A stretch of DNA of 64,000 nt from a virus. The translations under genes and the position numbers were made by a program. The stretch is taken from IMG/VR virus record IMGVR_UViG_3300045988_074608, one strand, 5' to 3'. The notes beneath the pieces are model-generated. The model was not told the DNA's origin and searched no databases. It saw only the letters and a list, made by a program, of their open reading frames with translations. This document shows positions 3,239-54,531 of this stretch, one piece after another (position 1 is the stretch's first letter; each line of letters starts with the position of its first letter).

Positions 3239-3309
3239 TGGACTATGGTGTAACGGTAACACAACAGTTTTTGGCGCTGTTGTTCCAGGTTCGAATCCTG
3301 GTAGTCCAA
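3239..3309 (+). tRNA. tRNA-Gln (anticodon UUG)
   Basis: Hand-folded cloverleaf: acceptor TGGACTA/TAGTCCA, D stem GTGT/ACAC, anticodon stem ACAGT/GCTGT, loop TTTTGGC, T arm CCAGG-TTCGAAT-CCTGG, discriminator A. No encoded CCA. Confidence 0.8.
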
Positions 3310-3342
3310 CAACAACTATCACTCCATTCAGGTATATTCAAC

Positions 3343-7837: not shown

Positions 7838-7907
7838 ATTTGCCAAATAGTTCGTATAAGTCGTGTAGGAGCATCGATGATGGCGTTTTTTAATGAATTG
7901 ACATTAG

Positions 7908-7931
7908 CACAAAGAATCTTAGAATCATGTG
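7908..7931 (+). other. hairpin with conserved AGAATCTTAGAATCA loop, copy b
   Basis: CACA / AAGAATCTTAGAATCA / TGTG. Confidence 0.5.
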
Positions 7932-8077
7932 GGAAAAAGACTCTCAACGTAGGGAGAATAAACTATATGTACACAGATCAAACAAATAACATTTGTGAAC
8001 CATTGAGTCGTTTATTCTAAGATCACGTTAGGTGTAAGGAATAACCAAATGTACTGTCAAAGTGTTAAGTTTATGAC

Positions 8078-8101
8078 GTTCAAGAATCTCAGAATCAGAA
8101 C
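8078..8101 (+). other. hairpin with conserved AGAATCTCAGAATCA loop, copy c
   Basis: GTTC / AAGAATCTCAGAATCA / GAAC. Confidence 0.5.
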
Positions 8102-8226
8102 ACCATCATAACAACATATTTAGTATATTAAACAGATATATCGAATCATATTACTACGAAGATTAAGAGTAGCTAACTTATGATTCAAAGTATATGCTGA
8201 GACAAACATTCTGTTTAATCTACCTA

Positions 8227-8257
8227 AGTATATAGAATCTGATCAATTCTATATACT
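8227..8257 (+). other. perfect 12-bp hairpin
   Basis: AGTATATAGAAT-CTGATCA-ATTCTATATACT, 7 nt upstream of the tmRNA-like module. Confidence 0.6.
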
Positions 8258-8263
8258 ACAAAA

Positions 8264-8387
8264 TGAAATCGTTTGAGTATGAGTTAATTATGTAGGACGA
8301 GGGTTCGAATCCCTCCACGTCCACTCTTATTTATATATAAGGGCGTGACCGGTTTTGACTGCATAAGGAAGTAAATACGAGATTTCA
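8264..8387 (+). ncRNA. circularly permuted tmRNA-like tRNA-like domain plus helix-2-like stem
   Basis: 3' half first: TTATGTA-GGAC-GAGGG-TTCGAAT-CCCTC-CACGTCC-A (8288-8323). A 17-nt linker follows, then the 5' half GGGCGTG-ACCGGTTTTGAC-TGCATAA (8341-8366). The acceptor pairs 7/7 with G8343:T8320 as G3:U70. Flanks pair 8288-8294/8360-8366, 8277-8280/8375-8378 and 8264-8270/8381-8387. Confidence 0.5.
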
Positions 8388-8481
8388 AAAATCGATAAAT
8401 CAGAACAATAACATTGTTGACTATACTCACGTAGCGTGAGTATAAGTCCCGACAATTCCTTGAGTCGGTTGGAAGAATAGG

Positions 8482-8979
8482 ATGGTTGGAGAAGTACTAA
8501 TAATTGGAGTTGTAGGGTTCGAATCCCTACTTCTCCTCAAAAAATTCATAGATATGAGAGGATATAAAGCTATGATTAAAGACAGACTTGTACCAACCTG
8601 GGAGTTAGCACTATTGTGGTGCAAAGCTAAAACTCGTTGGGTTGATACAGTATACAACTGTCATATAAAGAAATTAGGAAACAATAAACAGTTGAAAAAA
8701 GAAACTGTATTATTTGTAACAGGACATAGAAACAAAAATGGAGTTTATTGCAACTTCATGAATACTATTACAAATGATGATTGTTTCAAAGCTAACAATC
8801 CGGAAGAATGGGCATATTGGAATAGCGTATATAATTGGGTGAAATGGTTTTCATCCGAAATGCAGGTAATGAAAGATGATTTGATTACAAAATCTAAATC
8901 TGAATTCCAATCACTTTTTTATGTAAATGATGATTTATATAGATTTTTAAAACGAAATATTCATTTGTACGCATCATGA
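8482..8979 (+). CDS. hypothetical protein; probable start at ATG 8554
   Basis: The first 24 codons of the tracked ORF overlie the tRNA-like element, so MRGYKAM.. (8554) is the more likely start. Confidence 0.5.
   Translation: MVGEVLIIGVVGFESLLLLKKFIDMRGYKAMIKDRLVPTWELALLWCKAKTRWVDTVYNCHIKKLGNNKQLKKETVLFVTGHRNKNGVYCNFMNTITNDDCFKANNPEEWAYWNSVYNWVKWFSSEMQVMKDDLITKSKSEFQSLFYVNDDLYRFLKRNIHLYAS
8488..8536 (+). ncRNA. tRNA-like acceptor/T-arm minihelix (M1)
   Basis: GGAGAAG-[18 nt]-TAGGG-TTCGAAT-CCCTA-CTTCTCC: a perfect 7-bp acceptor-like stem and a canonical T loop. Too short for a cloverleaf. It ends 17 nt before ATG 8554. Confidence 0.5.
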
Positions 8980-9789: not shown

Positions 9790-10350
9790 TTGATTATGAA
9801 TACACCCAAAATTACTCTAGAAGAAATTGGGATAATCAAAGATGCCAAAGCTGGTAAAGAATCAGCATTTAATTTGTTGTACCATAAATACAGAAGTTTT
9901 GTAATAGATTTATTAAATCAATACATAAAAGATATAGATGAGTCTAAAGACTTATCTAATCTTGTATTTCTAAAGGTACATCAAAAACTCTCGAAATTCA
10001 AAGACTATCATTCATTTGGAGGATGGTTGAGAATACTAACAAAAAACACTGCCATTGATTATCTAAGGACATTGAAAGATAAAACAATATCTATAGATGA
10101 TCAAGAAAACGGAATACAATTATCGGATATCGGAGATATTGTTGATGAAAATGTTTCTATGACATATGATATGTTAATAGGAATGCTTGGTAAACAAACA
10201 GAAACCAATAGAAAAATCATCAAATTGTATTACGAAGAAGGAATGACAGTATTACAAATCAGTAAAGCGATAAATGTGCCAGTGGGAACTATAAAGTCAT
10301 ATCTGCACAGAATTCGTAATAACCTCAAAAAACAATTAAAACTATGTTAA
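9790..10350 (+). CDS. ECF-type sigma-70 family RNA polymerase sigma factor
   Basis: Region-2-like FNLLYHKYRSFVIDLL...FGGWLRILTKNTAIDYLR and region-4 HTH-like YYEEGMTVLQISKAINVPVGTIKSYLHRIRNNLK. The likely ATG is at 9796. Confidence 0.75.
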   Translation: MIMNTPKITLEEIGIIKDAKAGKESAFNLLYHKYRSFVIDLLNQYIKDIDESKDLSNLVFLKVHQKLSKFKDYHSFGGWLRILTKNTAIDYLRTLKDKTISIDDQENGIQLSDIGDIVDENVSMTYDMLIGMLGKQTETNRKIIKLYYEEGMTVLQISKAINVPVGTIKSYLHRIRNNLKKQLKLC

Positions 10351-16269: not shown

Positions 16270-16353
16270 ACCTTCATGGCGGAATTGGTAGACGCTTTGG
16301 ACTTAAAATCCAATGACCATACGGTCGTGCGGGTTCGATCCCCGCTGGAGGTA
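16270..16353 (+). tRNA. tRNA-Leu (anticodon UAA), class II
   Basis: Acceptor ACCTTCA/TGGAGGT (one G:U), D arm GCG-GAATTGGTAGA-CGC, anticodon arm TTGGA-CTTAAAA-TCCAA, long variable arm, T arm GCGGG-TTCGATC-CCCGC. Confidence 0.85.
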
Positions 16354-16413
16354 CAATGTTTTTAGGATAACATTATTATTTATTGTTACTATTTATTATT
16401 TTGTTGAGTTTGT

Positions 16414-24736: not shown

Positions 24737-25720
24737 ATGTATAGTACAAAAAAAGCTACAATTGATACATCTTTACGAGATATCATAGAGATGTTAGATG
24801 ATTATGATATCTACTCATATTATATCGGATCTTTTAAAATAAATAAACTTATGAATAGTCCTTTGCGTAATGATGATAAAAATCCATCATTCGCAGTATT
24901 TGTAGGACGAGAAGGTCGTTTATTTTTTAAAGATCATGGTAACGGAGTAGGTGGAAACGCTATAACGTTTGTAAAAACTATTTGTAATATACAATCAAAA
25001 GAAGAATTAGAAAAAGAACTTCTAAGGATTTTGCGAAAACAGAATCCTAATAAAGTAAAAAGGGTTAATATAAAGAAGTACGAATCTGCTCACAATACTG
25101 TAATTGGTATTGCTAGACAACCGTTTACTAATACTGATTTACAGTATTGGGGGCAGTTTCATATTTCTAAATCTACTCTTAACAAATATCGCGTTTTTAG
25201 TATAAAATATTTTCTTTGTAATGGAACCGTCAGAGGAGTCTACAAAGAAACCTGTCCTATGTATGCGTATAAAGTGTATGATAGATTTAAAATCTATAGA
25301 CCTTTAGCTTCCAAGTATACTAAATGGCGTTCTAATCTGACAAATTATGACGTTCAGGGGCTTGCTGAAATACCTCAGGGAGGAGGTGATCTTCTCATCA
25401 TTACAAAATCTTTAAAAGATGTAATGACTCTATATGAGATGGGATATAATGCTATTGCTGCATCTAGTGAAACAACATTTATTCCGGATGAGATATTGAA
25501 TAAACTTCAAACAAAATGGAAGACAATTCTCATTTTATATGATAGAGATGTAACAGGAATGAAAAAAGCTAGAGATTATAGTAGAAAATATCATTTTGAT
25601 GCATTTTTTATTAATAAAAGATTTAAAGCAAAGGATATTTCAGATGCGGTAAAAAATAATTCTTATGATAATGTAAAACAATGGTTAGATAAAGAATTAC
25701 AACGTTATGACAACCTCTAA
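24737..25720 (+). CDS. DNA primase (TOPRIM type)
   Basis: NPSFAVF..FKDHGNGVGGNAITFV N-terminal region. TOPRIM-like LIITKSLKDVMTLYEMGYNAIAASSE and ILYDRDVTG. Confidence 0.7.
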   Translation: MYSTKKATIDTSLRDIIEMLDDYDIYSYYIGSFKINKLMNSPLRNDDKNPSFAVFVGREGRLFFKDHGNGVGGNAITFVKTICNIQSKEELEKELLRILRKQNPNKVKRVNIKKYESAHNTVIGIARQPFTNTDLQYWGQFHISKSTLNKYRVFSIKYFLCNGTVRGVYKETCPMYAYKVYDRFKIYRPLASKYTKWRSNLTNYDVQGLAEIPQGGGDLLIITKSLKDVMTLYEMGYNAIAASSETTFIPDEILNKLQTKWKTILILYDRDVTGMKKARDYSRKYHFDAFFINKRFKAKDISDAVKNNSYDNVKQWLDKELQRYDNL

Positions 25721-34930: not shown

Positions 34931-37900
34931 TTATTTACATTGTTCATCTATTTCATCTGCTAATGTATCAAGAGCTTCGTTTGTAGGATAATCTTTTAAA
35001 GATTTCTCAATAAATTCCTATCTAGCTTCCAGATTCTATTTCAACTATTCAACAGTAATACCAACAGATTCTGCTAACTTAGTAAGTACAGACTAATCAT
35101 TAAATAATTTAAGCTAATTTTCATCTATAATGTGTTTTTCGCCATATAATGCTTTATTTATAGTACTTCCTATTTCAGCATTACCGTCCTCCGTGGTCAT
35201 CTTATACAAGAATTCCCCTAAATTATAACATTCGAATACGTTTGCAAAATCCTAGTTCTAACTATCTTTCTACATGATAGCTGGTATTTTTTTCAAAAGA
35301 TTAATTACGTTAAATACCGCTTTACTTTTAACAACCATTGATTTTTTAGACTTATCATAATATATTACATTTTTATCTATATCTTCATAAGACAAACCTT
35401 CATAATCATGAACAGCTTCTTTAAAATCATTTATTATTTCGGAAATAAACCCTTGCTTGAAATCAGAATACTTGATATATTGAGTGGTTTTGTCAGAATC
35501 TTCGCCTAATACATCCTCAGTCACAAATGAACTAATATTCTACATTATTATTTTTAGATCTTTTACAGAGACTCCTTTTATAGGTTTGCTATTATAGTAA
35601 TAATACTTTTTATTTACAGATTTCTATTCTGTTTTCTATAATCCAGAATCTGTAAACCTGTTTTTCTTCAGTGTTCCATCTTCATTATAATAATTTAACA
35701 TTTTATCACCATTATGGTGAGCATAACAATATACACAAGAAGATGCACAATTACTATTATATTTTAACAAATCGGTTTTTCCACCATAACAAGAACACAA
35801 CTATCTAAATCTATTATTCTCGGTTAGTTTATTAGGTATTTGTGTACCAAGCATTTTATTAATAGCATCTACACTTAAACAACCTTCTATACTTATACCA
35901 TCCATTCTACAAGGTTCTGCGCATGTTGACAAGTCTAAATTATATTTTTTAGCAATATTTAACATCTTTTCAGCTATACCTTTTATAACATCCATTCTGG
36001 CATGAGTAAAATAAAATCCGGAATCATTCTTATCGAAGTATTTAGAATAATCATATCCTAATTCTTCCATAAATTTAGAAGTGGTTTTATAATAATCTAA
36101 CACTGAAAATCTTACATGTTTTACACCTAATTCACTAGCTCGTTTCATCAATTTATCCACTTCAGATATTTTAGTAACGCCTGGTATAATAGGATCTATT
36201 CGTAATGTAACATATTCTGGATCTAATCCTTGTTTTATAAAGTCACCTATTCTCTCAATCATGTCTTGCCATTTCATAACACCAGGCTCCCATTTAGTAT
36301 TGCCTAAAGTAGTAACGCTGAAATGAATTATTTTAGGTTTGTTTATCTATAACAATTCTCTCATTGGTAAACCATCGTGTTTTGTTATCAAATATAATGC
36401 GTCTATATCCTCATATCGAATAGGGTTCTTACTATAATCTAAAAATGTATGATTTCCTTTAGCCCAATCTTGTATCATTTTTGAGAAGAATACTGGATCA
36501 GTGTGTTCTGACGCAACTGCAATTCTTGGTCTAGTATCATCTCCAGTAAACGGTTTTATAGCAAGTATTTCATCATTAGTTAATATTGTCTTATCGGAAT
36601 TCAACGTTTTAACTTGTTCCAAATAAGTTCCGAATCTATCCTCATCATTCGCATCTATACTATCCTGCGTATCTATACTGTTATCTGGTTCAATAACATA
36701 ACCTTCTTTTTCCTATAATCTAGTTCTTATTTTGGTTAATATATTTGCGAATCGTGATTCTCCTGTAGGTTCACCTTTTTCCATAATTTCATCAAGGATT
36801 TCTCCTTTTCGATTAATATGTGTGAATTTTACATTTCCTGTATTAATTAACAATTGTTTAGCTTCTTCATTTTCTACAAATGACTAATACATGAGAGCAG
36901 ACAATATACTGTTACTAACTTTTCTCCAGATATTTAACCCTTCGCCAAGATTAACACTAGCACCTTTAGCTTTTGCTATTTTAGGATCTTGTTCTGTTAT
37001 TATAGAATTAAATATTCTAATCTTATCATCAGTTGACAATGCAGTAGAATATAAAACCTTAATAGCCTAGAATGCATTTTCAACAGTATTCGCGGAATGT
37101 TTTACAATAGATTTAATCTTATCAATATCTTTAATATATGATAATTCCTCTCCAGACAATACATTAAATACATCTGTTATATGACGTGTTGCAAAGTTAG
37201 ACAACATTAGATTATCACCACGTTCATAATGTATATTTATAGAATCTTGTTTCTTATAAAGACCTTCGATGGCAGTTATAAATGCATTTGGAACTTTATT
37301 GTTATTAATCAGATCATCTTTTGTTATAAATCCAGACTGTCGTATTGCGTTTTCAATAGATCCTCTCTGTTTATTTACATAATCTATTACACTTTGTAAT
37401 TGTGTATCAAATGTCTATTGAGCAGATTGTACAGTTGGAACAATTTTATTACCCTGCTTATCAAATTTGTCAAAATACGTCTTATCGTAATCGTCATCTA
37501 TTTCACATGAATAGAATTGATATGTCTAAGAACCTATTTTCATACGTAAACCTTTTGGATTTACAATTTTATATATAGGGTATTCGAGACTAGTTCCATA
37601 TTGTGATATTGATCCGACTCCAACTAATTTATATAATAAAAATCTATCGTTATCTGCATATGTTGTACCATTTCTAAATGTTTTTATAAACGGTGGGAAT
37701 TGTCCATTTTTATTTTTAGATATAGGTGAAGAATATTTATTATTGTAATATGATAATCCTATTATTGTCCTAGGTTCTGTTCTTAATGTAACAGTACCAT
37801 CATATCCTACCTATTTATATGTAAAATTAGATGTTATAAATCTACTATAACCTTTTTCAGTCTTTGTATTAGTAGTCGGTATTATATTATTATCTGATGC

Positions 37901-40900
37901 AAAGTTTAATAACAACTCGTCTATGTTTATGCTATAATCTCTATTGGATTCAAGATTACCTTTATAATAATCAGAAGCTTCTTTTATATATTTACAATAT
38001 CCAAAATCTTTTCTCCACTGTAATGGTACATATTTAAAGAACTTAACAAATCCTTTACTGTCTGCAGAAGACATAAATGCATATATTGCCAAATCATTTG
38101 CAATACCTCGCATAGCTTCTTGTAGTTTAGGATTCTTATCGTTTGTATAATTAAGCATATCTTTCCAAGCTTCTATATAATCATTACTTACAGCTGAATC
38201 ATCTTCTGAAGTATATGTCATAGAAATTATATCATAATGAGGTTTACCTTCTTCTGCAAAATAATGTACAGAATGTAGTTTTTCGATAAGTGGATTTATT
38301 ATAGTTCCATTTTGAGTAAACTGTTTTAACTAACCAGACTCATCTGATCGTAACAATCTCTATAACATTGTTATACGTTTAGCTAACGTACGATTGCCAA
38401 CAATTAGTTGCTTCCAATACGAATATATCGTATGATTTGTACCGTGTTTTTTGTTATATTTATCAACATAATCCTAAAAAGCATAATTAAACGCTTTCTA
38501 TTTTATGTAACACATCATCGCATTATTAACTGCTGTTCTAGTAGCTTTAGATTTATTATTCAATATACTTAAAATCTCATCTCGTTGTTGTTCAAATGAT
38601 TTTTGCATATGAATCATCTAATCTCCCAAAACCATATGTATGAATTCTGTACCATAATAAGTTTTATCGTCAATATAAGAATCATTTAACATCTATTCAA
38701 TATTACTATTAAATAATGTACTCTATTTAAGATTATTATATTTCGCTAAATACTACTGCTAATCTTGATAATTTATACCTTGTTTCTTAGTATCAATTTT
38801 AGTATATTGTACAAGATCTGACAGACCCTGTGCATATTTCTCAAACTCTTTCGAAGCGATGTATATCATTTGTTGGATTTCAGATACTTTTATATTTTTA
38901 TCGCGAATCTTAATAGTTTTATCTAAATCTAAACTTGAAACAGAATTTCCAGCTTTCTTATAATAATTTCTATCCGTTGCGAGTATTTGTAAAATAGTCT
39001 TTTTTACTGTTTTACCATTTTCATTAACTTCTACTCTAAAACCATCATTGCGCATAGGGTCTCCAAATATATCTACAATAGTAGACATTACATCATGTGC
39101 AAGCTAATCTTTATCAGATAGAGAACCATTTGCATATATTGCAGCAATACTTTTTGTACCAAAAGTCTTATTTATATATTTTTTTTCAGCCTCTTCTTTT
39201 CTCTATTGTGGAGATAAACCTGGATTATCAACTATCTAACCATCGCATTCATTATAAATCTATGCTAAATCTCTAATCACAGGATTATTTAAGAAATAAA
39301 ATGCATGTCTACCAAAACCTAATCTTATTAACAATGAACTTATATTATAAGTAGCTTTATTGATATTCATTCTCAAAACATAAGGATCTTTAGCAACATC
39401 TACGTGACCATTGATAAGTGCTGATATCCAAGATAATATAAATGATCCATCACAGTCAACACTTCTTGCTAAAGATAAAGCTCCTAAATTACTTAATATT
39501 CCACCATCTGATATAAATCCAACATCATATAATTGTGTCAAGATATGGTTATTATTGTTCAAAGCGTAAGGTCCGATACCAGTTTTACCTGTTGCGAAAG
39601 AACCTCTTGTTTCTACCTAAGTACTAAGCATTTCAAATTGATATGGTTCGTATGGTTTTGCAACAACTCCACTCTCAAGTTCTTTCAATACATTTTTAAC
39701 AAGAGATGTATCCTAGTCAATAGATCTTCTTAAAAGATGTGCATATCTTCCACCTTGTAATTCACCATTTTTATCAAGTGTTCCACAATCCTTTAATAGT
39801 GATATATATGTACGTAAAAGATCATTAGTTAACTATTTCTTCTTATCGGAAAGATTTTCAGAAGTTGCTGTATAACGGGATTTTCTTCTAATCTGACCTT
39901 CTTTATCAATAAAATCAACATCGTGTTTTACAAGTTCGTAGAATAATGTAGACATGTATAATTTATCAATATCGAAGTCAGAACCTGTTTGAGCTGTAAA
40001 TTCTTTAGGTAAGACAATAGTATCTCTAACAATAGGTAATACATCTACAAATCGTAAAGCTCCAATTGAAGATGTAGCCTGTGTAGGAATACGATATGAC
40101 ATAGTATTGGCTTCAGCATTATGCCACTCAGTTTCTCCAGTTTTTACACCAGATATTATATCATTATCGATCAGCCATTGTTTAGCCTTTTTAAAGTTAT
40201 TCTACAATCCTTTTGGAATGATATCCATAAAATAGTCTATAGATACTACAGCATCCATTGAACCTTCTTCATTGATCATACGTAAAGGTTTTCCACCGTT
40301 CAGTTTACTTTCAATATTTTCAGAACTAATAACCTTATACGGACTATCCATTCCAAAAACAGTTCTCTGATAAAATGCATTACCTTTAGTACGAATATCG
40401 ATGACATCAGTTCCTACTTTAGATGACAATATACTTTCAACCCAAGCCATATTTGAAACGCTGTTCAAATCTACATTAAAACCATCTCCGGCTTCATTTA
40501 ATTCTAAAGCTTCTAATATATTTTCATCAGCATTTCTATCTCGTAACTACTGTACTAAAAATTGTTGTAGATTTTTAAAGTTTACAGTACCGTCCTAGTT
40601 TGTAAATTTATTTTTCAGTTCATCCCAACTAAGTTTAGCAATCTCACGCATCGTGGACATTATCTTATCACGAACCTCGTTTGCGGACATTTCTTTTACT
40701 GTACCATCTGATTGACGTATATTATAAGTATCACCATCACGTAATGTACCCATACAAACCTTTAAAACCTGTGTACCTGCAGCCATTATTTCATCTACAC
40801 GTGGATCTGTGTTCAACTGTCTACGAATCCATTTATATTTCTATGTATAAATATGACCTGCGAAAGAAAATTTATTTATATCTTCAGCAGACATGTCTGG

Positions 40901-43900
40901 GTCAAACCTCTAAGCTCCTTGAGAGCCTGCTTTTACAGCAGACTACATCATACACATATCAACTCCATTTTTAGGATCGTTCATCTTATCATAAAGATGT
41001 TTTAAGAATCCGTATGATATACCTTTGAATATTGGGAACAATGCAAACTTATTATAAAAATGGACAGGTGTTCCATTTTGCATTCTATAACCAAAAGCAG
41101 AATATTTCTAAGTAGATATAAGAGCATTGTGTACAATTTCATAAGCTTTTGCATCTGATAAATAACTATTATTTTTACCACGTAATATATCAAAAGCCTC
41201 TTTAACATTTTCTGTAAATGCACCGCGTTGTTTCAACAAGTTTTCAGCCATCTTGTCGGTTATGAAAGCAGTACCATCAGTAACATTAACACCTTCCAAA
41301 TGTTTAGAATCATCGTATACATAACTATTTGTTTCGGATTGAACTTTCTTATCGATGATTTCCAAAATACCAGCTTCTTTTAACAACTCTTTCTGTTTTT
41401 CAACATCCATGTTGTTTACAATCTTGTATATTTCAGCTTTTTCAGCTTTGGATATATCTCGACCTTCGTATTCTTGTTTACTTAATAGTATGTTAACACA
41501 AGCTTCTCTATATTCACCTCTTTGGAATACTGTTTTTAAAGAATTTACCATTTCACTGGTAATCTACCAGTCATTTATTTCCGCAATTCTATATTCACTA
41601 GGTATTCCAGGTATATCTTCTCTATTGTTAGATCCAGTAGAACCAACACCTCCATAACGTTTAGTTTCATCAACACCAAATGTTACAAGCTATCCTTTAT
41701 CATTGTAATTAGTCTTGAAGAATTGTGGCATTCCTGTTACAAATCTTCTACCCTCTTCCATAGACATTAACTGTTTGCACATTGTGTCAAATACATAAGC
41801 TACTATAGCCTAACCTTCTATTTCTGCTTCACTCTTTAATGAATTATAACGCCTCTCTGTATTACCTATTCTAGAATTTCTATATGCGTTGGCAATAAGT
41901 GCTATTTTATTAACATCTAAGTAGTTATTTTTGTAGTTGAAATATTTAGCATTTTCAGCAGCACTTGACGTATTTGTCTATACTTCTATAATACCAAGAT
42001 CTACAAGATGTTTTAACTCGTCGTCTAATCTATGTCTCAATATATCAGCCACTATTTTTCGTTTTTCCTCAATAGGTCGACTAAAATATTTTTCAACTGC
42101 TTTATTATAAGATTCGAGTATTCCGTTAGTTGGTGTACGATGTTTTTTTGCATCATCTGTAGATACATCATCTTGAAAATTGAATGATATGAAATTATCA
42201 CCTTCATAAATACCTGCCAATGATGTAAACCTTGCTCCGTTTTTACTACCTGTATGATAGTTTTTAATCATTTGTTCGGCAGGAAGTTTATCTTGCTCGC
42301 CATTTGGACCATAACCTAATTCACGAATAGTTTTCTCAACATTCCTACGTTCGCATTCGAAATACTCTATAAATTGATCTAATACATCGTTTTGTTGATA
42401 TCCTTTGCTTAAATCCTCTAAGTTAAAGAATATCTAACCTGTAAAATGATTAAACATAGGCAGTTTTCCAAATGCTGATATCTAATCATCAGTCATTTGA
42501 CTACTTACTTTAATATTATAGTCAAATCCTGGTAATTTAAATCCTCGTACAGACATGTATGTAGATTTATCAGACAATGTTGGCATTATTATAAGACCAT
42601 CAGATAGTTTCTACATTCTTGATATTTGATCTTCACGTTTTCCCATTTCTGAGAATTTAACGCTATCCGAACTATACTTAGATCCAGCATCGGTATCAAT
42701 AGATATTTCGTCTTTTACTTCTTTATTTAATAACTGCTTAGCTATAACAGATCCTCTTTTCTAACCGTCTTCATCTTCAAATACAACATACTCGACATCT
42801 TTCATATCATCCAAAATAGAACCTTTTCTAATCGAACCATCTGATTCAAAAGAAGTGTTCAAATCATCTACAACATCTGATACTGTATTGTTTTGAGCAT
42901 ACATATACATTTTAGTATTTCCAGCACCCAATGTCATCATTTCTGATGTTGCCATTTTATATTCAGATGTTGCTTCTGCAAGCATTGTTATAAATTGATT
43001 TTTAGCATATAAGAACGCTCCTGAATATTTACCGTCTTTATTAGAATCTCTTGTAAATACATTTAAATCACCTGATTTTACAGCATTATTTAATTTGTCA
43101 AGAACTCCGTCTTTTGATATAAGTGCATATATACTAACACCTCCACTTTTACTACTTGTCATCATTTCACGTAATGATTCTATATAATCAGTACTGTCTG
43201 GATTTAATTTGTGCAGTAAATGATAAAATGCAGGTTTTGTAATCATTACACCTATAGAATTAAATGCGTTAATTATATTACTAACAATGAAATCAAAATT
43301 AGCAACATCATTTATATCATATATTTTACCATTTATATCAATCTTAGTACTATCTCCAATTAAACCTTTTCTTATTTGATTCAATGTTGTAGCACAATCT
43401 GCAAATGTCGTATAATTTCTGTTTATATTGTCATCTTTATTATATAATCCGGTCAAACCAGACCTTACATAATCAAACCATGCGATTGGATATTGTCTAG
43501 AACTCTAATTAGTATTTGTCTATCTATATCTATATTCGTATCCTTTTTTATTACCTTCTGATTCATTTATAAACAAGAAGTTAAAGTTAAGTTTTTGTGA
43601 TTTAATACTCTAAAACAATAACGTAGTAAGTGTCTAATTGTTCTGATTCTATGCGTAAGTAGCACCTTGTAATATATCACCTGCTTTACATATAACTTTT
43701 CCGTTTTTACCAACAAGGTCTTTAACAAGACGTACTTCAGTAGGATACATAGCTTGTTCACTTCTATCTTCTGTATTACTTATATAATACTCTGGTTTTA
43801 CAATAGCTCCATGATAATATACTTTTGGAAAACCTGCATATTTTTCATATTGTTTTTCTGTAAAACGTAGATAAGATTGATAACGTAATCTATACAAAGA

Positions 43901-46900
43901 TTGGGCTATTCTTTCGAACATGTAATCGTTTTCTCCAAGTCTCCTTAATTGATTATATAAATCAGATACATTTTTAACATCGTGTAATTCTGATAACAAT
44001 CTCTGATGTACTGATTTGAAAGATAAAAATACAGGTCTACCCATAGAGTTTACTGTCTAAGGTATTGTTGCACGTTTTGGCTTACCATTTTCTTTGACAA
44101 CTTTTCCATCTTTATCTAAAACGTACATACTTTTAACTACACCAGATGCTACATCTTCTTGTGTTACATATCTAAGATTAGGTATAGTACTCAACATCCA
44201 TTGTATAGGAGCTGCAACATCATCAGACATAGAATGAGAATAGAATTCGTCTGCGTGTCCTTGAATATCATCAGAAACAGCACTTGTTATATCACTATCA
44301 AGATCTTCTTTTCTTTGCGCGTCTCTGTCTTTTCTTTTGCGAATACCCATCTATTGCAATTTAGATTCCAATAATGGTTGAGCTATCTACCAATTCTAGA
44401 ATAATTCACGTATAATTAATGCATTATCTCGTGTCAATGCAGGTAATTTACCATCTTGTACAAGTTTATCAAGTTGTTCTTTTGTAGCAGAACCTCCTGT
44501 AATCTAAACATACCATTTAGCAAATGGTGAATCTTTTGCTAAAAGTGTCTATCTATCAAATTTAAGCTTTTCTATATTATTACCGAGAATATCAATACCT
44601 TGTTTTTGAACAATTACTGGTAATAATGTTTCAACAACTTCATTTAATTGTTTCTAAGTATATATGTATTGTAATTGATGATCTTTACCTTCATTGTCCT
44701 ATATTGTCATGTTAAGACCTTTTGGGAACAATCTGTTAAAACGTTCCATATTTTCTTTCGAAGCTTTACGAGAAGAGAATTTACCGTGATCTATTGCTCT
44801 AAACGTACATGCCATCTTAAGATTACGTGTTCTTATAAAAGCGTTCAATGTATTATACAACCAAGCAAACATTCTTAATATTTTATTTTTAGGTTGCCAG
44901 TTGTATTTAGAATATGCATAGAACATATCAGCAAGACCTTCAGCAATCTACTCTTCTGATAAATCTTTATTTTTACGCTTTTTCTTATACCAATTATAAA
45001 GAACGTTTCTTTCTTCTTCACTCATTAACATTTCAACAACGTAGTGAAATGATTCATGATATTGTGCATTATTTTCAGCTTCGTACGATAATTTAATAGC
45101 GGCACTCATACAACGTCCAACAACATCACCATGCTATGTTTTTTCTATAATATCTTTTACTGGAAGTATTTTAACACTGTCTCCGCATATTCTACGCACA
45201 TCTTCTGTCGCTTTTTTCAGCCCTTCTTCATCTTTTATAGGATGTTTAGCTTTTTCACGTTGTACCATATTCCAACCGTCATCACCAAACATATCATCTT
45301 GAGCAGATAACATATCATCAATAGATACATCTTGACCATCTATGTCATCTAATACAGTTTCATCAGATTGAGGTGTTTCAGGTTGCGTGTTTATCCAATC
45401 ATCGATTGCAGTTTGCATTTGGGCAGATTGTTCTATAATTGCACTAGGTGTTGTATCATCTACAGAAATAGCTTCAAAATCAGATGTACTTACCAAAGCA
45501 TCGGTTATTCCAGAATATTCTGACTAGAACCAATTATTTTTAATCATCCACGCAATACCACTTATGTTATTTTCAACATCGTCTCTTGTTATTACGAATT
45601 CATCTGAATATCTGATAGATTGTACATTTGGGTTTTTATCAAACCATTCTTTAACACCATTAAACAATCTACTAACCTTTGAATTTTTAAAGTTATCACG
45701 TATTAATAATGTATTCTGCACATTCAAATATCCATTTGTTGACAATTCCTGACGAAGTTTTTGCAAATCCTGATCATTTTTAAGATTATATATTGTTTTA
45801 GTGTTACCTCCATCGTAACTCATATATACTTTATTACGATCAAGATTACCATCTTCATCTTTTACATAATCAAATTGGAATTTACTGTCTGTTGCGACAG
45901 CTCCACCTCCGAATCTTATAAGATAATGTAACAATTTAGAATTATCTATAGGACCTTGTATTTGATTGCCATCTTGGTCAATTACATTAGCTTTTGATTG
46001 TTTCTTTCCTGATATATTTGTTAGAATATCAACAATAAGATCTGCTGCAGATTGTGACATTTTACCAGGTGTCAATGCTATTAATGCTGTATGAGGTACA
46101 GCACCCTGTTCAGAATCTTCAGCGTAATCCAATGGTTTCTGAATATATACAATACCTGGTCTTGACAAATTCTCATCATTTACAGCTTCTCGTTGAGATG
46201 TTCCAGATCCAACCTTATAATCATCACTATCTAATCGTCTTAAAGTACCCTATGAATCCGATATCAATAACATTGGTTCCCCGTTTTTATAATCTAACAA
46301 ACCATTTATCTAATCGTCTGTTAAATCCAAACGTTCTTTTACATTGCCAGGTTTATTATTATACTGATATTTACCATTTGTCCTACTAAGTCCTTTTAAT
46401 ACAACTTTTATTTTTCCAGATTTTATATCATCTTTATTCTTTTGATAAAAATCTATAAGTTTATTTCTAAAATCTTGTTCAACTGCGTATATAAAAGATA
46501 TTTCTGCAGTAGCTTCTTTTGAAAGAATTTGTCCATTATATGATATTTCTTTAAATTTCAAATATGCACCACATGTAGCAGCAGTATCTGAAAATTTTGA
46601 AGCTTCAAAATCTATTACAAATTGTACATTTTTAATAAAATCTTTTTTAGTAGTCCAATCTTTAAATACTTGTAATGCTTTCCTTTGTGCAGGAGTTATT
46701 TGACTTCTATCTTTAGCAAGTCTGTTATAATGTTTTACATATTTATTATTATATACTCTAGGATTTGGATGAAATTTACCTTGACCAGGACCATTACCTT
46801 TGTTAGTTTTATCTGCTAAATGTTGTTCTACAATTGTTTTAAATCTTGTCAAAATATTTTTTTCTCCTTCTACCCATTCTAAAGCTTGTTTAAGAACAGA

Positions 46901-49900
46901 TAATGTATTATATCGATCGATATTTTGTTCGAATTTAGTTACAGCATCGATGTGTGCATTATATTGTTGACTAATTGTTGCATCTTTAACATTCTACATT
47001 AATGTATCAAGAGCATCTAATTGATGTTTTAATTGTGCAAAACTTAGTTTTACATTTTCTCTAGCTTCATCTATTTGCTGTTGTATATCATGTAATTGTT
47101 CAACATATGTAGTATGTACATATTTAGGGTCCTATATTGCCAAATCGACCATTTGTATAGGTTGTACGTCAGTTATAGCAAGCAATTCACTCCAGTTATC
47201 ACGTGGACTTTTAGTAGTTACGGTAATACCCATTAATTGTAAATTACAAACGCTACTACCAGTACATTCCTAAATCATTTGTGCATATGCATTTAACTAA
47301 TTTGTATATACTTCTCTAGCAGTGTGTTGTTGACGTCTTCCGAATGCTGAGGTTTTACCATAATCCTTATCAAGAGCCTCTCTTTTCTTTTCTGTCTAAA
47401 TATTTCCTCCAACAGTACCACTAACTATTACATCTTGTAATTCAAATGAGTATTTAGATGTTTTAAAATCTATAAGAGTTATATTACCATCTGGCGCTAT
47501 TGCTAAAAGGTCAGGTTCACCAGCTATTTTAACTTTAGTTCCATCTGGATTAGTTTTTTCATAATATAAACAAGTTGGTCTTGTATATAAAACATAACCC
47601 AAAGTCTCCATTTTATCCTTGAATTTCTTAAGATCATCTACGAGTTTATCAAAAACTTCTTCAGGAATTCTTTGATCCACATCTTCATAATTCAAGGTTT
47701 TACCTGCTAATATATCACGAGCTATTCCATCTATTATAGAACCAGATATTACAGAAGCACCAGGTAAGAATAAATTTGTATCCGTATGTGCAAATAATTT
47801 AGCGATAGAATTTATAGTTTCATCGCTCTTTAATATATCGTCAGTTTGAAAATAACCCTCAGGATTTATCTTACATCTCTCTGCTAATTCTGAATCAGTA
47901 CCATATAAACGAACAGCTGTATTATAATAATCATCAGCCATTTGATTTATGGCTTTTATGTATTCATTTTTGTAACCTTCTATAACATTTGTACTATCAT
48001 TCCTCTTAATAGAATCTAACCATGCATCTCTTAGTTTTTGTAATGTATTGGTATTTTTCTTTATAGCATCTTCCTATTCTTTTGTATTACGGAACTGAGG
48101 TTCCATCATACTATGAAGACGACTATACATTTCAATCCTACCATTTGTTTCAATGAAATAGTTATTTCCTGTACGCCATTCGTAATGATATTTACTATTA
48201 GACGCAGAATATTCATCTAATACTTTTATAGTTTTAGATTGATCTTGTGTTATTACAACATTACCATATTTTATATTAGTTTCTGGCGCAACATACGGAG
48301 TTTTAGGCTGTTGTGCAGGTTGCACAGGTTGTACTATAGGTTTTGCAGGAGTTGGATTTAATAACTTCTTATAATACCTTGCATAATTATACTCACTTAT
48401 TGTTATTTCCTAATCATTTAAGAAATATTTAAACTTACCATTTTTCTATTTTCTTTTTTCTAATTTTGCACCGTTATTTAACAAATTGACGATTCGCATT
48501 TCTTTAGTACGATAACCATCATCACTTATAGCTCCAAGATTAGTTACTAACTAATCAAATTTCTTTTGATTATATTTTCTGCTATTTGCATAATCCGCTA
48601 ATCTCTAAATAGAACCTTTATAATCAGATGTTAAACCAGGAGCCTTAGCTGCAGCACTTTCATAAGATTCTCTATCCATCCATTCTTTTTGAAAATCTTC
48701 GAAAAGCTTCATACTAGAACTTCTATAATTATCAAGTCTATTACGTTCTTCGTCAGTAAGTTTATCAAGTTCAGAATCGTTTAATGCTACATAATCATCG
48801 TATTGATCTTTTGTCTTTTTCAAACTTTTACCACGATCATCATATTCATTTCTAGAATCAAACCATTCTGCCTTATCAAACTATTTGTTAGTTTTGATTA
48901 ATTTATCATTTTCAGAATCATACTCATAAACTCTACGTATACCATCTATGTCATCACGTACAACATATGTCTTACCATTTCTAGTATACGTATTATTATC
49001 ATCGGTTATTACTGCAGAATCTAATTTCTGTCTATCTAACTCGTCGTTATAGAAATCATCTTCAACACTCTGACGTAACAATTCATCTTCTTTTTTATTT
49101 TTCAAATATGCTTCAACAGAACTCTTAGCAAATTTTGGATCTTTTACTAATTTGTTAAGCATTTCATTATTGAATTGTAACTGTATCGAAGCATCAGAAA
49201 GATCGCGTTCTGCTGCAACATAATCATCGTCTATATGGAATCCTTTGCTTTCTGCAAACTTTTTCACATCTTCTTCGGTGTCTAATGCAATGTTATCACC
49301 ATATACCTCGTGAATACGATCTTTGGTTTTTTGGACGTCATAATCAACTTTAGCTTTTACAGATTTTCCACCTTTCAACTCTTTGATTTTTTGCATATCA
49401 TTCAACAATTGTTGAGTCTACATTTTACCAATAAGTTGATGTATTGTTATAAGATTACTATTATTTGCTTCATAAGCACGCTGTAAATCATCAAACATGT
49501 TTACAAACTTAGCATCATCTTTATATTTATCTGCAAGTTTATATCTACCGTCTTCCCCTTTTTCTATTTTAAACTGTAACTAATTTATTCTAGGATCACT
49601 TGCTCTATTTGCATCTAAGTAATCTTCAAATGACTATGTTACATTTAAACCGATAAGATTATTTAATTTTTCTTTATAAAATTGATCAGCTTCTGCAATA
49701 GAATTTTGTCTACCTGCTAATACTGCAATGTATGTATCAAAGTTTTTCTACATCACAGAACGTTCATTTGTCTTCTTTATAGAAAGATTATCTTTTATTT
49801 TCTATTTCCATGATTTATTTTCATCTTTCTCTAAAAATCCAGCACTTGTTGCGGTTTTACGTACATCTTCATTTTGTTGTAATATTCCGACTGTATTTAC

Positions 49901-52765
49901 AAGTTTTCTAAGGTTAGCAACATGATCCGACGGTATTCCATAACTAATATTATCTTTATTACGCTCTTTCATATCAGATGTGATACCTTCGTACTAATCT
50001 AACATCGCTTTAATTTTAGAATAATTACCTTTACGTAATTCTTTAGCAAATATAGACGCTTTCGCAAGATAATCTTTATCTGAAATATCGTCAGCTAATA
50101 AATTATTTAATATAAGATGATCGAGTTTAAACTGTTGATATGTATTAGCTGCACCTCGTACAGCTATATTAGGACCACCTTGTATCAAAGCTCCTAAAAT
50201 ACCACCATGCATTTGTTCCCATATATCACGTTCTTGTGCTGTAGCTTGTTCAGGATCTTTAAATAGAAAACTAGACCATAATTTAGCACCATCCAATACG
50301 GTCATAGGAAGCTGATTTAAAACATTATAATAAGCATTAGACATCTCTTCTACACGCTCATATTGTTGTTGTTGCTGTAAACCTTCTTCAGCACCTTCGG
50401 AATACATACTTGCTCCAGCTCTCCATCCGAAATCTTTAGCAACCTTACCAGCAGTACCTAAATATCTTCTATATCGTAATACTCTTTCTGGTATAGCAGT
50501 AGCCATATCTATAACATTTGCAGAATGCTGCAATGATTTTTCTGCCATTTTTGCTAAAGCTTTGTCTATTTTACCTTGTGCAAAATTTCCTACTTTTTGC
50601 ATCAAGACAGGTATTCCAGATTCTTCTATAAGATCTTTTGTAATACCTCTTACAAAATTAGCAGGTGCATTTAAAGTTGTTCTAATACCATTTACAGCAT
50701 TTGTAACAGCTGCATCTCCACCTTCTGATAATAATTGTTGAACTGCCTTTCTAAGCGATGTTTTACTACCATCTGCATATTTGCGTAAAGCCATTTTAAA
50801 CGCTAACCTGTCTCCTTTTGCAGCTAATTTATCAGTTAGAAATCCAACCTTAGAATTTTTCGCAATACCTCCCATAGGCATACAAGACACAATAGCATCT
50901 GTTAAAGAATCAAGAGTATTAACACCCATTCCTTGATAATATTGTTTTGCAGAACCTGCGGTAGCATCTAATAAAGTCTGTCTTATTTTAAAATCATTTG
51001 GAACATATTTACCGATATAGAAAGCATGTAATATATCATCAACAGTAGCACCTTCTCCAAGCTCTTTTCTACCTTCGTTTACAAATTTATCAAATTGATC
51101 ATTTTCAATAAGAAGTTTTTTAGCTAATACATCTGTAGCATCTGATACGTTTGCAAAGTTCTCATCTGCTCCAGCAGCCATAGAAGATGCAAAAGAAACA
51201 GCTCCAGATGCAAGTGCTATAGAAGCACCTGCAGTTTCAGGTGCTAATATTGAACCGAGTAAAGCTGTAGCACCGGCTCCCATTGAAATTAAAGTTTTCT
51301 CTGGAGAAGACATTGATGAAGCGAGAAGACTTGGTGCCATCCACATTTTTGCAGGATTATACCATGCTAATGAATTAGCAGCAGCTTCTCGTTTTCTATA
51401 ATAATTCGAAACTTCATATCCTTTTTGATATTTCTCCAAATCTTTTTTATCAATCTCATAATCATTTCGCCACAAAGCTTTCATTTGTTCAGCTCTACTA
51501 TTGAATTGTTTATATATATTATCCAACTATGTACGAGCTTGTTTTGCTGCAGCAACATCTCCTTTCTCAAGAGCCGCTTTATACTTTGTGATATTTGCAC
51601 CAAATCCATGTAGTTTTGAACCAACGCCAGTTCCGAAATCCAAATATCCAATATCGTGTAACAAAGACTGTGCATCAGAAACTAAATCTCCAGCCCACGT
51701 ATGATTTTCAAAAGATATTAAATCTTTAAATACGTTTTCTTGTTTTTCTTTCTTTTGTTGGAGTTGATTTATTTTTTCTTTAAGATTGTCCCAATTAAGA
51801 CTCTCTTCCTTACTGATACCTTTTCCGCTAACATAACGATTTCTAATATCTTCAAACTATGCCTAAGTATTTTTAAGTTCAGTTACAGTTTTTTGATATT
51901 CATCTAATGCTTCTGGATTTACCATGTTTTGTTGCTACATTAATGTATTCATTTTACCAAGACTTGTAGCCATCTAGGTTTCGTTTTTAGAAATACCAAA
52001 AACATGATATGCATCTTGCAACAAAGAATTTTTTCTATTTTTATCGATATTATCTGCAATTTTTTTACCACTCCATAATAAAAAAGGAGCTGCTATCGGA
52101 TTCTAAATACTTTGTAATACAGCATTAGCTATAGGTAACATGCTATCATAATAACCTTTTGGAGCTGTATCACCATCGTCCTATTTAAAATCCTCTGGAT
52201 GCATTGTTTGATACCAACGTACTGTTTTATCAATTTCGTAATCCAATGCTTTTGCCTAACTTCTCAATTGAGCAGCTGCTTTAGGATTAGATTTTTCAAT
52301 ACTTGTAGCTGCGTCATTATAAGAATCTCTATCTTCCATAAGTCTTCGTACTCTACTTCTGGAAGCTCTTTTATCTAAATTTTTATTTTGTTCCCGTTGT
52401 CTATTTTCAGCATCTCTCTGTTCTTTTGTGAACACTTTTCTTCCAGGAAAAGACCATTTATATTTAGATAGATTCGGATTTTGTGGTATCAGAGAAGTAA
52501 AATCGGTATTATTATTTTGCTGATTGTTATTCTGCCGATTATTATCCTACTAATCATTTGTATCTGATGACAATTCTTTATTTTTACGATCAGCATCTCT
52601 TTTCAAACGTTCGTTTAATTGTCTCTCAGCTTCTTCATCTTCTCTCTGTTTTCTTAAAATATCCTATCTTTTTCGCTCTTCTGATTTTCTCAGACGCTCC
52701 ATATATTTCGCACGTTCGTCATCACGAACTCGGTACGAACCTCTTATTAAGCTATTTATATCCAT
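34931..52765 (-). CDS. giant multidomain virion-type protein with RNA polymerase motif, 5,944 codons with TAG read as sense
   Basis: About 30 tracked fragments from 35270 to 51526 share one frame and all end on TAG. A codon-by-codon hand scan of the gaps found about 96 in-frame TAG and no TAA/TGA. ATG at 52763-52765 lies 2 nt after the upstream stop. The ORF ends on TAA TAA (34928-34933). Confidence 0.7.
35726..35749 (-). other. CxxxCxxC cluster of a DUF1848-like (radical-SAM-like) module
   Basis: ..NCASSCVYCYAHH.. lies downstream of ..ASEHTDPVFF...TLRIDPIIPGV... (36622-35801). Confidence 0.45.
39965..39979 (-). other. DFDID metal-binding motif of crAss-type virion RNA polymerase
   Basis: ..AQTGSDFDIDKLYM.. 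I verified the codons GAC TTC GAT ATT GAT on the - strand. Confidence 0.65.
47462..47512 (-). other. PD-(D/E)XK nuclease core inside the giant ORF
   Basis: ..GEPDLLAIAPDGNITLIDFKTSK.. (D...D-x-K). Confidence 0.5.
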
Positions 52766-52767
52766 AA

Positions 52768-54531
52768 TTAATATATCATTGATGCCGACCCCTTGTCGGT
52801 TGTTTTAATATGATAACTATCTCTCAGATTAGCTTCTTGATAATCTATATTAGGTGCATAAGCTCCACTTGTAACATATGTATTACGGTCAGCCTTACCG
52901 TCTTTAGCTGCAATAGATGTATAATTAAACGGCATATAAACTGTACCAACGTTCACAGCTCTATTGTTTTCATCTCTTACATACAATGTTCCCACTGTAG
53001 CTTGTACAACTTGTCCATTTCGTTTAACAGTTGTTGCAACATTATTACCTGTTCTAGGTACAAATACAAGGTGTCTATTAGCTCCAAGAACTCTATCAGA
53101 CTTACCATGTTCATTCAATTTTCTACTTATATCTCTATGTAATGGAATATGTCTTTGCATTATATGATGTGAACCACTTGTTTCTGCTGCCCATCTATCA
53201 CCATCTATTAATCTAGACGCCTCTTGTTTACTAATAGTAAATCCATCTACTATTGAAGTTTTAATAACATCTTTATCACTACTTTTTCCTACTTTTGCCA
53301 CCACATTTAATTTATATTTTCCAGCATCTCCAGCTTTTCTTTGATGTCCAAATCGTTTATAAGTAACTTCAAACGGTTCACCGTGTGTGATTGTAGCACC
53401 TTGTACTTTTGCAGAATATATTTTCGATTGTTTACTATCTTTTATTGTTTTTCCAGTATATGGTATTTTACTAACGGTTTTCTCTAATACTTTTTTAGCT
53501 TCTGATGTAGCTTCTGCGAATGGTAATAATAAACCATTAGCTTTGTATTCATCGATATTTAATCCAATCAAAGCACCCAAACCTCTTAATAATTGCGTCT
53601 AATGATAATTGAGATTAATATCTTGTTTTTCTTTTGCAGCAGCTTTCTAACTTTCATATTGTTGTGCTTGCTTTTGTTTAGCCATATCATGCTGGAATCT
53701 TATATTTTCAAGAGCATATTCATTAACCTTCTTCTCTTCTCTAAGATAATCACTGTTTCTATTTACAATATCATCTGTAAGATACTGCATGGCTAATTTA
53801 TCAATATCTGCTTCAGAAGCTTGCGGGTTCACAGCTCTTACTTTATCTTTAGCTTGCGAATAATAATATTTACCGTAATCACTACTTAAGAAATCATTAA
53901 TATTACTTTTAAGCACGCCACGTATATCATTTTCGTCAACTGTGTAATAATCATAACCGTCTTTTTTCTAATTGGTTAATTTCTCATTGAACTTTTTATC
54001 AAGATGTTTAAACCAATCATCTGTTAGATCATGCAAATTTTTATATTCTATAGGCGATACTCTATCAAACAAACCATTTTTTAATGTATCCCAATCTTTA
54101 AATTTATGTTTCTGAAAGAAATCTTCCATCTACTAACTGTATAAACCCTTAGACTGTAACTGTGCCATTGCTTGAAGATAAGCTTGTCCTGTTTTCGATG
54201 ATTGTATAATTTGATTTATTTTATCTCTAGGTGTAGTTCTTATAACTTTAGCTATCATGGCACGACCCTCTGCTGTTCGCAGAGGATCTATACCCATTGC
54301 TTCCATGTTATCTATCGCATCATTTAATCTACCATATGTTAACTTATCATAATTTTCAACATCTTGTTGAAAAGGAGATGTAAAATCACTGTATTTAGAC
54401 AGATATTCATCCATTCTTTTTTCTCCAGATTCATACTGATCTTTTACAGCATTTAAATAAGCATTCATAATACCAGTATCATATAGCTCTGGGATAGGCA
54501 TATCTACTGGCTAATCATATCTATATATCAT
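52768..54531 (-). CDS. late structural/ejected protein, 587 codons with TAG as sense
   Basis: Fragments 52768-53580, 53647-53916 and 54133-54501 share a frame and join across TAGs, including TAG TAG at 54130-54135. ATG at 54529-54531, TAA at 52768-52770. Confidence 0.6.

Follow-up and report, generated by a model that had tools for sequence, protein, structure and literature searches.

Circularly permuted ssrA genes in Alphaproteobacteria, some Betaproteobacteria and Cyanobacteria yield two-piece transfer-messenger RNAs (tmRNAs). Their pieces are joined by the acceptor stem and helix 2, and they carry an alanine identity pair and a tag that is followed by a hairpin and a pseudoknot. Bacteriophages also encode such RNAs, with two-piece forms making up 53 of 133 unique phage tmRNAs (PMC9004378). 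Those of marine myophages (Melnitz, pelagimyophages and cyanophages) are encoded in the early region, have tags of the alphaproteobacterial type (ANDxxxALAA) and are in some cases accompanied by a glutamine riboswitch. The gene studied here was first noted at positions 8264-8487 and lies on the plus strand of a 64,000-nucleotide (nt) stretch of viral DNA (IMG/VR record IMGVR_UViG_3300045988_074608), which is called the window below. It is a circularly permuted tmRNA gene of a TAG-recoding crAss-like gut phage.

The closest described genes are annotated as 'transfer-messenger RNA, SsrA' in six RefSeq genomes of crAss-like phages (cr124_1, cr7_1, cr131_1, cr130_1, cr272_1 and cr273_1). The window gene shares with them the permuted order, a G3:U70 pair, a conserved GTATGAGTTAA / GGAAGTAAATAC internal loop, a tag of the form ...VDYT..., a tRNA-like element at the 3' end and synteny with a sigma factor gene; cr273_1 is also TAG-recoded. 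Unlike these genes, the window copy and its nearest relatives (the window lineage) have an intervening sequence of 17 nt rather than 50-138 nt, a different register in the distal part of helix 2, a resume codon that does not begin with G, a TGA stop and, at the 3' end, a tRNA-like element that is strongly reduced, and they are missed by the program ARAGORN. Compared to the two-piece tmRNAs of bacteria, the window gene matches the clade-specific models only in part, lacks the first pseudoknot (PK1), and is flanked by a 5' hairpin with an invariant loop and by a 3' tRNA-like minihelix. Like the marine myophage genes, it is a phage-encoded two-piece ssrA in an early region, but none of the 43 sampled phage RNAs of that kind has the 3' minihelix. 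The host range of the phage is presumably Bacteroidota. The tmRNA of Bacteroidota themselves is a one-piece molecule.

Structure and conservation of the permuted tmRNA gene

The Rfam 15 model RF04321 (tmRNA_permuted), in which the alpha, beta and cyanobacterial two-piece tmRNA families RF01849, RF01850 and RF01851 have been merged, matches positions 8264-8439 on the plus strand. The match is full-length (model positions 1-213) and scores 62.0 bits against a gathering score of 47, with an E-value of 1.4e-9 for the whole window searched with 4227 Rfam families. A search with covariance models had been proposed as a check in a preliminary description of this DNA, which had recognized the order of 3' half, linker and 5' half; both the RF04321 alignment and the relatives of the gene bear out this order, with helix 2 joining the two pieces. 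The same model also passes in 13 of 18 related loci, and it gives the cr273_1 tmRNA 46.2 bits, just below threshold. None of the three clade-specific models reaches its gathering score. With lower-scoring matches from the same Rfam clan omitted, the best is beta_tmRNA at 41.8 bits versus 84, and this partial match, found in a permissive scan, covers the tRNA-like domain only (model positions 76-172 of 331).

The core of the acceptor piece occupies 8264-8323, as defined by the RF04321 alignment, covariation counts and the minimum-energy fold. Its 3' portion (8295-8323) reads GGAC-GAGGG-TTCGAAT-CCCTC-CACGTCC-A, just as first described. It comprises the GAC element (8296-8298), a T arm with stem 8299-8303/8311-8315 and loop TTCGAAT (8304-8310), the acceptor 3' strand CACGTCC (8316-8322) and the discriminator A8323. 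An intervening sequence of 17 nt (8324-8340), the length originally given for the linker, is predicted to be removed. The 5' part of the coding piece (8341-8387), delimited by the RF04321 alignment, a 20-sequence alignment and covariation, then starts with GGGCGTG-ACCGGTTTTGAC at 8341-8359, again as reported. This contains the acceptor 5' strand GGGCGTG (8341-8347) and an analogue of the D loop, ACCGGTTTTGA (8348-8358). The 7-bp acceptor stem has G8343:T8320 as its third pair, which is the G3:U70 identity pair for alanine.

Helix 2 forms between 3' strands in the acceptor piece (8264-8270, 8277-8280 and 8288-8295) and 5' strands in the coding piece (8359-8366, 8375-8378 and 8381-8387), which are arranged around the conserved internal loop GGAAGTAA. 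All three pairings that had been proposed for it are present in the window: TTATGTA (8288-8294) with TGCATAA (8360-8366), GTAT (8277-8280) with ATAC (8375-8378), and TGAAATC (8264-8270) with GATTTCA (8381-8387). Folding 8222-8545 without constraints yields a minimum-energy structure that contains the acceptor stem and T arm, each of the three helix-2 segments and the tag-end hairpin. The fold has a z-score of -4.81, and none of 100 shuffled sequences folds as well.

Covariation was scored in an alignment of 20 distinct sequences that covers the acceptor piece and the start of the coding piece, with the intervening sequence removed. The structure scored was the one proposed in the preliminary description, except that the distal helix was placed in the register of the main group of relatives. 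Standard pairs occupy 98.3% of cells, versus 74% in shuffled alignments and 35-60% when pairing partners are slid by one to three columns. Changes on both sides are seen in 22 of 29 pairs, and on none of five measures does any of 500 shuffles reach the real alignment. Covarying pairs are spread over helix 2a (8 of 8), the T stem (5 of 5), distal helix 2 (5 of 5) and the acceptor stem (4 of 7). In the acceptor stem, G1-C72, G2-C71 and G3:U70 are invariant in all 20 sequences and pairs 4-7 covary, giving rise among relatives to GGGCGAT/ATCGTCC, GGGCCAT/ATGGTCC, GGGGATG/CATCTCC and GGGCCTG/CAGGTCC. The compensatory changes that the preliminary description had looked to in the acceptor and helix-2 pairs are thus abundant in related phages, with G3:U70 fixed. 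The identity of the gene, its secondary structure and the selective constraint acting on it are established.

Some parts of the domain do not vary. GTAT/ATAC and the internal-loop sequences GAGTTAA and GGAAGTAA are invariant across the alignment and may contact a protein. Also invariant are the tRNA-like domain consensus elements GAC and UUGA. In the window lineage (the window copy and the copies numbered L123, L127, L138 and L159), the distal helix adopts the different register TGAAATC/GATTTCA; an alternative register for the same lineage pairs ATCG and TTTGA with TCA(A/G)A...CGAT. This distal helix does not vary within the lineage and therefore lacks separate support from covariation. A separate observation concerns the T loop, which is GGCAGAG or GGCAGAU instead of TTCGAAT in five copies (L125, L151, L153, L161 and L163) and is replaced by about 25 nt in L143. 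These six copies retain the acceptor stem, helix 2 and the tag.

Among relatives, the intervening sequence is between 15 and 138 nt long and shows no sequence conservation with that of the window. Variability in length and sequence is as expected of an excised spacer. In most relatives (L138, L125, L128, L136, L160 and others), the intervening sequence closes, immediately ahead of G1, with a hairpin whose loop, UGUUGUAAAAC, is conserved. The stem of this hairpin covaries (AGGCA/UGCCU versus GAACA/UGUUC), and L160 carries two copies. Lineages with short spacers, including the window (8324-8340), lack this hairpin.

A distant BLAST match of the locus is the annotated tmRNA of RefSeq NC_055904.1 (cr273_1; Suoliviridae, Oafivirinae), for which ARAGORN predicts a permuted form and the tag GNINVVDYTGLQEAA. 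Patterns of conserved motifs, scanned against viral and metagenome contigs, gathered 31 distinct family members, from human, pig, macaque and lemur samples. Most relatives with complete contigs are on contigs of 90-106 kb, and syntenic genomes are about 95-105 kb. An initial scan that used only the T arm and acceptor strand was too general and returned tmRNAs of every kind, but its contigs were reused as a control set. In this pattern-selected sample of viral contigs, 44 of 84 tmRNAs called by ARAGORN are permuted. A pattern scan of genome contigs gave one phage-sized contig binned as 'bacterium' and two probable chance matches, and hence no host information.

When a main-group sequence was used as query, eight GenBank phage records were matched. 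The gene was returned only from the six annotated RefSeq genomes, all taken as Oafivirinae on the taxonomy seen in the three records opened (cr273_1, cr124_1 and cr130_1), and from two records with no assigned family. In these last two, Dulem virus 42 (L167, PP511876.1) and a Bohxovirus (PV686213.1), the tmRNA is unannotated, and in Dulem virus 42 small hypothetical coding sequences, which are probably spurious, have been called across the locus. The preliminary description knew of no permuted tmRNA-like gene in a TAG-recoding phage. This implied novelty does not hold, as the cr273_1 record annotates a homologue and this phage recodes TAG in its late genes. The gene family is therefore not new, being present in public RefSeq annotation, and the window copy adds to it a new and more reduced member. 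No paper discussing tmRNA in crAss-like phages came up in literature searches, where tmRNA was mentioned in methods sections only. Three features appear to be undescribed: the absence of PK1, a covarying 5' hairpin with an invariant UGAUCA loop, and the 3' minihelix.

Tag region and flanking RNA elements

Helix 2 is followed by an A-rich single-stranded spacer (8388-8403) and by the tag frame AAC AAT AAC ATT GTT GAC TAT ACT CAC GTA GCG TGA (8404-8439), which encodes NNNIVDYTHVA. Two candidate frames had originally been left undecided. The one that ends at this TGA is the right one, as it is homologous to tags called by ARAGORN in relatives, including GNVNNIVDYTNVA, DNVNNIVDYTHVA and GNINVVDYTGLQEAA. 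The other (..RTITLLTILT) is not conserved, and in most relatives it is interrupted by the TAG inside GTAGAC. The tag end N-I-V-D-Y-T-x-V-A-stop is conserved in 15 distinct sequences, with synonymous changes in codons for valine (GTT/GTA), threonine (ACT/ACC/ACG) and asparagine (AAT/AAC). Tags of the cr273_1 and L143 types end in ...DYTGL(Q/K)EAA.

In relatives, the tag start called by ARAGORN is GGC or GAC. For the window, AAC 8404 is the likeliest resume codon judging from its spacing, since it lies 25 nt from ATAC, near the 26-27 nt found in most relatives with an ARAGORN-called tag. CAG 8401 or AAT 8398 could serve instead. In L143, whose tag is not called by ARAGORN, the distance from helix 2 to the tag is 34 nt.

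The end of the tag and its stop codon are enclosed in a hairpin that resembles helix 5 (8419-8448), recognized as an inverted repeat and in the fold. Its core consists of TATACTCAC (8422-8430), the loop GTAGC (8431-8435) and GTGAGTATA (8436-8444). The 9-bp stem and GTAGC loop reported earlier are thus real, but they lie at 8422-8444, one base before the span of 8423-8445 first given. GACU...AGUC and the loop GUAGC are conserved. The stop is TGA in the window, L123 and L127 and is TAA in all other members; with the G of the TGA (8437-8439), the hairpin regains a C-G pair that involves the His codon. Both TGA and TAA remain valid stops in a TAG-recoded phage.

Immediately downstream is a probable H-type pseudoknot that resembles PK2 (8449-8474). 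Stem 1 pairs CCGAC (8449-8453) with GTCGG (8464-8468), and stem 2 pairs TTCC (8456-8459) with GGAA (8471-8474). Compensatory changes lend this assignment moderate support: within the window lineage, stem 1 occurs both as CCGAC/GUCGG and as CUGAC/GUCAG, and in the main group two pairs of stem 2 have compensatory changes.

A tRNA-like minihelix without an anticodon loop (8488-8537) follows the coding piece. It is composed of the acceptor stem GGAGAAG (8488-8494)/CTTCTCC (8530-8536), the T arm TAGGG-TTCGAAT-CCCTA (8513-8529) and the discriminator T8537. An element of this type lies directly 3' of the coding piece in every lineage. When an automatic alignment of the element was given to RNAalifold, misaligned 5' strands left the T arm as the only part recovered, and a search with shuffle and outgroup controls was used instead. 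The acceptors differ in sequence (GGAGAAG, AGAGAAG, AAGAAGT, GCGTCTT and GGGGGGA), and in each of these five sequence classes all seven pairs form. The chance of a complete 7-bp acceptor in shuffled upstream sequence is 1-19% per sequence. With the same criteria, no minihelix was found in 43 unrelated permuted phage tmRNAs. Ten of 12 minihelix variants fold unaided to an acceptor and T arm.

The middle of the minihelix ranges from 3 nt in L145, through 18 nt in the window, to a full cloverleaf in cr273_1. The cr273_1 element scores 53.6 bits with the Rfam tRNA model, yet its 'anticodon' loop has four nucleotides. A 7-nt loop occurs only in the L128/L151 type, and ARAGORN calls the L151 copy tRNA-Cys(ACA). 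The window element (8488-8537) is not matched by the tRNA family RF00005, which has no match in the window at its threshold of 29 bits. Its best Rfam match is mascRNA, at 22.5 bits (E = 0.07), below the threshold of 42.5. MascRNA is likewise an acceptor/T-arm tRNA mimic with no decoding role that directly follows a non-coding RNA, MALAT1. That system is eukaryotic, and the comparison bears on a possible mode of action rather than on homology; here, cleavage is predicted.

The half of a tRNA that is formed by the acceptor and T arm is the part recognized by tRNA-processing enzymes. Because only this half is kept, the minihelix is read as a processing signal, a substrate of RNase P, RNase Z or the CCA-adding enzyme, and we infer that its cleavage sets the 3' end of the coding piece at 8487. 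The possibility that the element hides an amber suppressor tRNA was considered and rejected. Its central region varies in length and sequence even among close relatives, has mostly 4-nt loops and is absent in L145, and cr273_1 has an ordinary tRNA(CUA) elsewhere. Some recoded Suoliviridae have been reported to lack a suppressor tRNA.

Upstream of the acceptor piece is a 5' hairpin (8227-8257) with a 12-bp stem (8227-8238/8246-8257) and a 7-nt loop, CUGAUCA (8239-8245). It is a perfect inverted repeat in the window and is predicted independently by RNAalifold. Across 15 sequences UGAUCA never varies, and pairing holds in 93% of cells, with two-sided changes at 9 of 10 pairs. The G·U pairs of the hairpin fit the plus strand only, so it is a transcribed RNA structure. 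Pairing of the CUGAUCA loop with AUCAG just before the window tag was considered, but it is not conserved in other lineages.

The 5' hairpin is preceded by a conserved non-coding leader of about 300 nt (7935-8226), seen as conservation islands common to 15 lineages; its insertions and deletions have lengths that are not multiples of three. There is no plus-strand open reading frame of at least 40 codons between 8020 and 8482. The leader holds a second GATCA within AGATCAAAC (7975-7983) and a hairpin, TAAG-AGTAGCTAA-CTTA (8164-8180), whose 9-nt loop is conserved while its stem switches from TAAG/CTTA to GTGG/CCAC. It also carries repeated motifs that resemble CT(T/A)AGA(G/A)C. The leader may belong to the precursor, serve as a regulatory region or form an RNA of its own. 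At the start of this long non-coding region is a near-consensus sigma-70-type site (7898-7925; TTGACA-16-TAGAAT, 11 of 12 matches), a consensus of doubtful relevance in a Bacteroidota-type host.

Genome context and TAG recoding

Weak DNA similarity links the window to crAss-like phages. The phage is a member or a close relative of the subfamily Oafivirinae of the family Suoliviridae, within or near the order Crassvirales. If TAG is read as a sense codon, very long frames follow one another on the minus strand from 28.6 kb on (28595-63718). The largest of these (34931-52804) has 5957 codons, 96 of them in-frame TAGs, and a second has 2110 codons with 31. The plus-strand block from 1 to 28.5 kb, which is nearly free of in-frame TAG, contains the early and middle genes and the tmRNA gene. 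Sense reading of TAG is confined to the late-gene block of the window. In cr273_1, late genes also hold in-frame TAGs, including 36 in an annotated coding sequence of 5794 codons.

The tRNA genes of the window are tRNA-Gln(UUG) at 3239-3310 and tRNA-Leu(UAA) at 16270-16354, and none of them has the anticodon CUA. A tRNA(CUA) is carried by cr273_1 (24866-24939 of NC_055904.1). A few genes downstream of the tmRNA is a gene for a sigma factor of the extracytoplasmic function (ECF) type (9790-10350), with Sigma70_r2 and Sigma70_r4 domains. It is syntenic with 'sigma-W factor' genes of cr273_1, cr124_1 and cr130_1, and the position of the tmRNA upstream of an ECF-type sigma factor gene is kept across relatives.

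Proposed maturation and function, and competing explanations

Very probably, this crAss-like phage has a functional ssrA gene at the locus. A review names RNase P and tRNase Z as the probable processing enzymes of permuted precursors (PMC3985003), and by analogy with established tmRNAs the following course can be proposed. A single precursor would be transcribed rightwards within the early/middle block. Its acceptor stem (8316-8322/8341-8347) would form and present, together with the T arm, a tRNA-like substrate that RNase P could cut before G8341. RNase Z or exonucleases would remove the 3' trailer after A8323, and the host CCA-adding enzyme would complete the CCA end. A second RNase P cut, between 8487 and 8488 and thus before the minihelix, would release a coding piece of 8341-8487, with the two pieces remaining held together by the acceptor stem and the long helix 2. 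The RNA would be charged by host alanyl-tRNA synthetase (AlaRS) through G3:U70 and delivered to stalled ribosomes by host SmpB and EF-Tu. Translation would resume on the tag frame, adding about 11 residues that end in ...DYTHVA. Processing, charging, use of SmpB and the fate of tagged proteins are all modelled here on tmRNAs that are already well characterized.

Several observations weigh against a functional tmRNA. ARAGORN, which had been recommended for checking the prediction, finds two ordinary tRNAs in the window and no tmRNA, and it calls none of the four closest relatives of the window copy. This failure is not counted as evidence against the gene because the program recognizes 13 of 27 homologous loci as permuted tmRNAs and the window copy is picked up by Rfam. 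PK1 was sought and not found: in the lineages examined, the stretch from helix 2 to the tag has no more than 12-16 unpaired nucleotides (about 20 in L143), too few for a pseudoknot. Two-piece tmRNAs typically have both PK1 and PK2 (PMC3985003). PK1 is typical rather than universal, and the permuted Rfam model itself does not include it. The candidate resume codons of the window lineage do not begin with G. Of the CCA end, the window encodes just the first C, and the minimum-energy fold of the window's own minihelix favors an alternative hairpin. Finally, no SmpB was found in Pfam and PHROGs scans of ten neighboring proteins or by tblastn of E. coli SmpB over the whole window. Function would accordingly depend on SmpB from the host.

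A refinement of the tmRNA reading would make the RNA a specialized part of the code switch, providing extra rescue capacity or a phage-specific tag when TAG comes to specify glutamine late in infection and host and early phage messages that end in TAG cause ribosomes to stall or to read through. This specialization is conceivable but unlikely. It would fit the recoding of TAG in late genes of both the window and cr273_1 (96 TAGs per 5957 codons and 36 per 5794) and a tag family that differs from the ANDxxxALAA tags of other permuted phage tmRNAs. Furthermore, tmRNA resolves ribosomes at unassigned UAG codons in E. coli, which limits propagation of UAG-containing viruses (PMC6207430). However, the gene lies in the TAG-free early/middle block. 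Reviews also report TAG recoding in Steigviridae and Zeta-group phages. Because the phage-record search returned no copy from these recoded families, recoding seems not to require a tmRNA. An extended form of the same idea, which is speculative and must be considered quite improbable, is that Oafivirinae carry a self-contained minimal trans-translation cassette that they deploy against stalling and read-through arising from their own TAG-to-Gln switch. This cassette would consist of the structured leader, the UGAUCA hairpin, the acceptor piece, the excised spacer, the PK1-less coding piece and the minihelix as an RNase P signal.

Alternatively, the RNA might be a decoy that occupies SmpB, AlaRS or ribosomes and blocks trans-translation by the host, in the manner of the mycobacteriophage DS6A RNA, which has no coding sequence. 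The DS6A form inhibits endogenous tmRNA in E. coli (PMC11915505), and the phage RNA described here is reduced in that it has no PK1 and a single pseudoknot. A pure decoy would need neither tag nor stop, whereas the tag frame, the stop and their helix-5 context are conserved in all lineages with synonymous changes, and this explanation is very unlikely. Phage genomes often carry 3' ssrA fragments from integration sites. The many non-permuted matches in the first pattern scan might likewise suggest that the locus is what is left of a host ssrA gene that no longer functions, such as an attachment-site fragment or a decayed capture. Covariation effectively refutes this reading: both halves, the tag and the downstream structures are present, and compensatory evolution has maintained them in 31 distinct sequences. 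In addition, the syntenic position is fixed, and there is no integrase among the ten neighboring proteins scanned.

As a functional tmRNA gene, the window copy adds a divergent lineage to the tmRNA family of a phage group that is among the most abundant in the gut. ARAGORN misses the window lineage, the newer Rfam model catches it, and at least two GenBank genomes leave the gene unannotated. The novelty is modest, and interest rests on the architecture (no PK1, the 5' hairpin and the 3' minihelix) together with the recoding context. With no PK1 and one pseudoknot, this is an unusually small two-piece tmRNA. Its minihelix is a clear candidate for the element that sets the 3' end of the coding piece, which is a poorly defined step in the maturation of two-piece tmRNAs. 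Since tmRNA can act at unassigned UAG codons, phages that switch the meaning of TAG and carry this RNA offer a place to ask whether ribosome rescue by phages is tied to code switching. If Oafivirinae do deploy a trans-translation cassette against the consequences of their own switch, phage tmRNA would be part of the toolkit for changing the genetic code.

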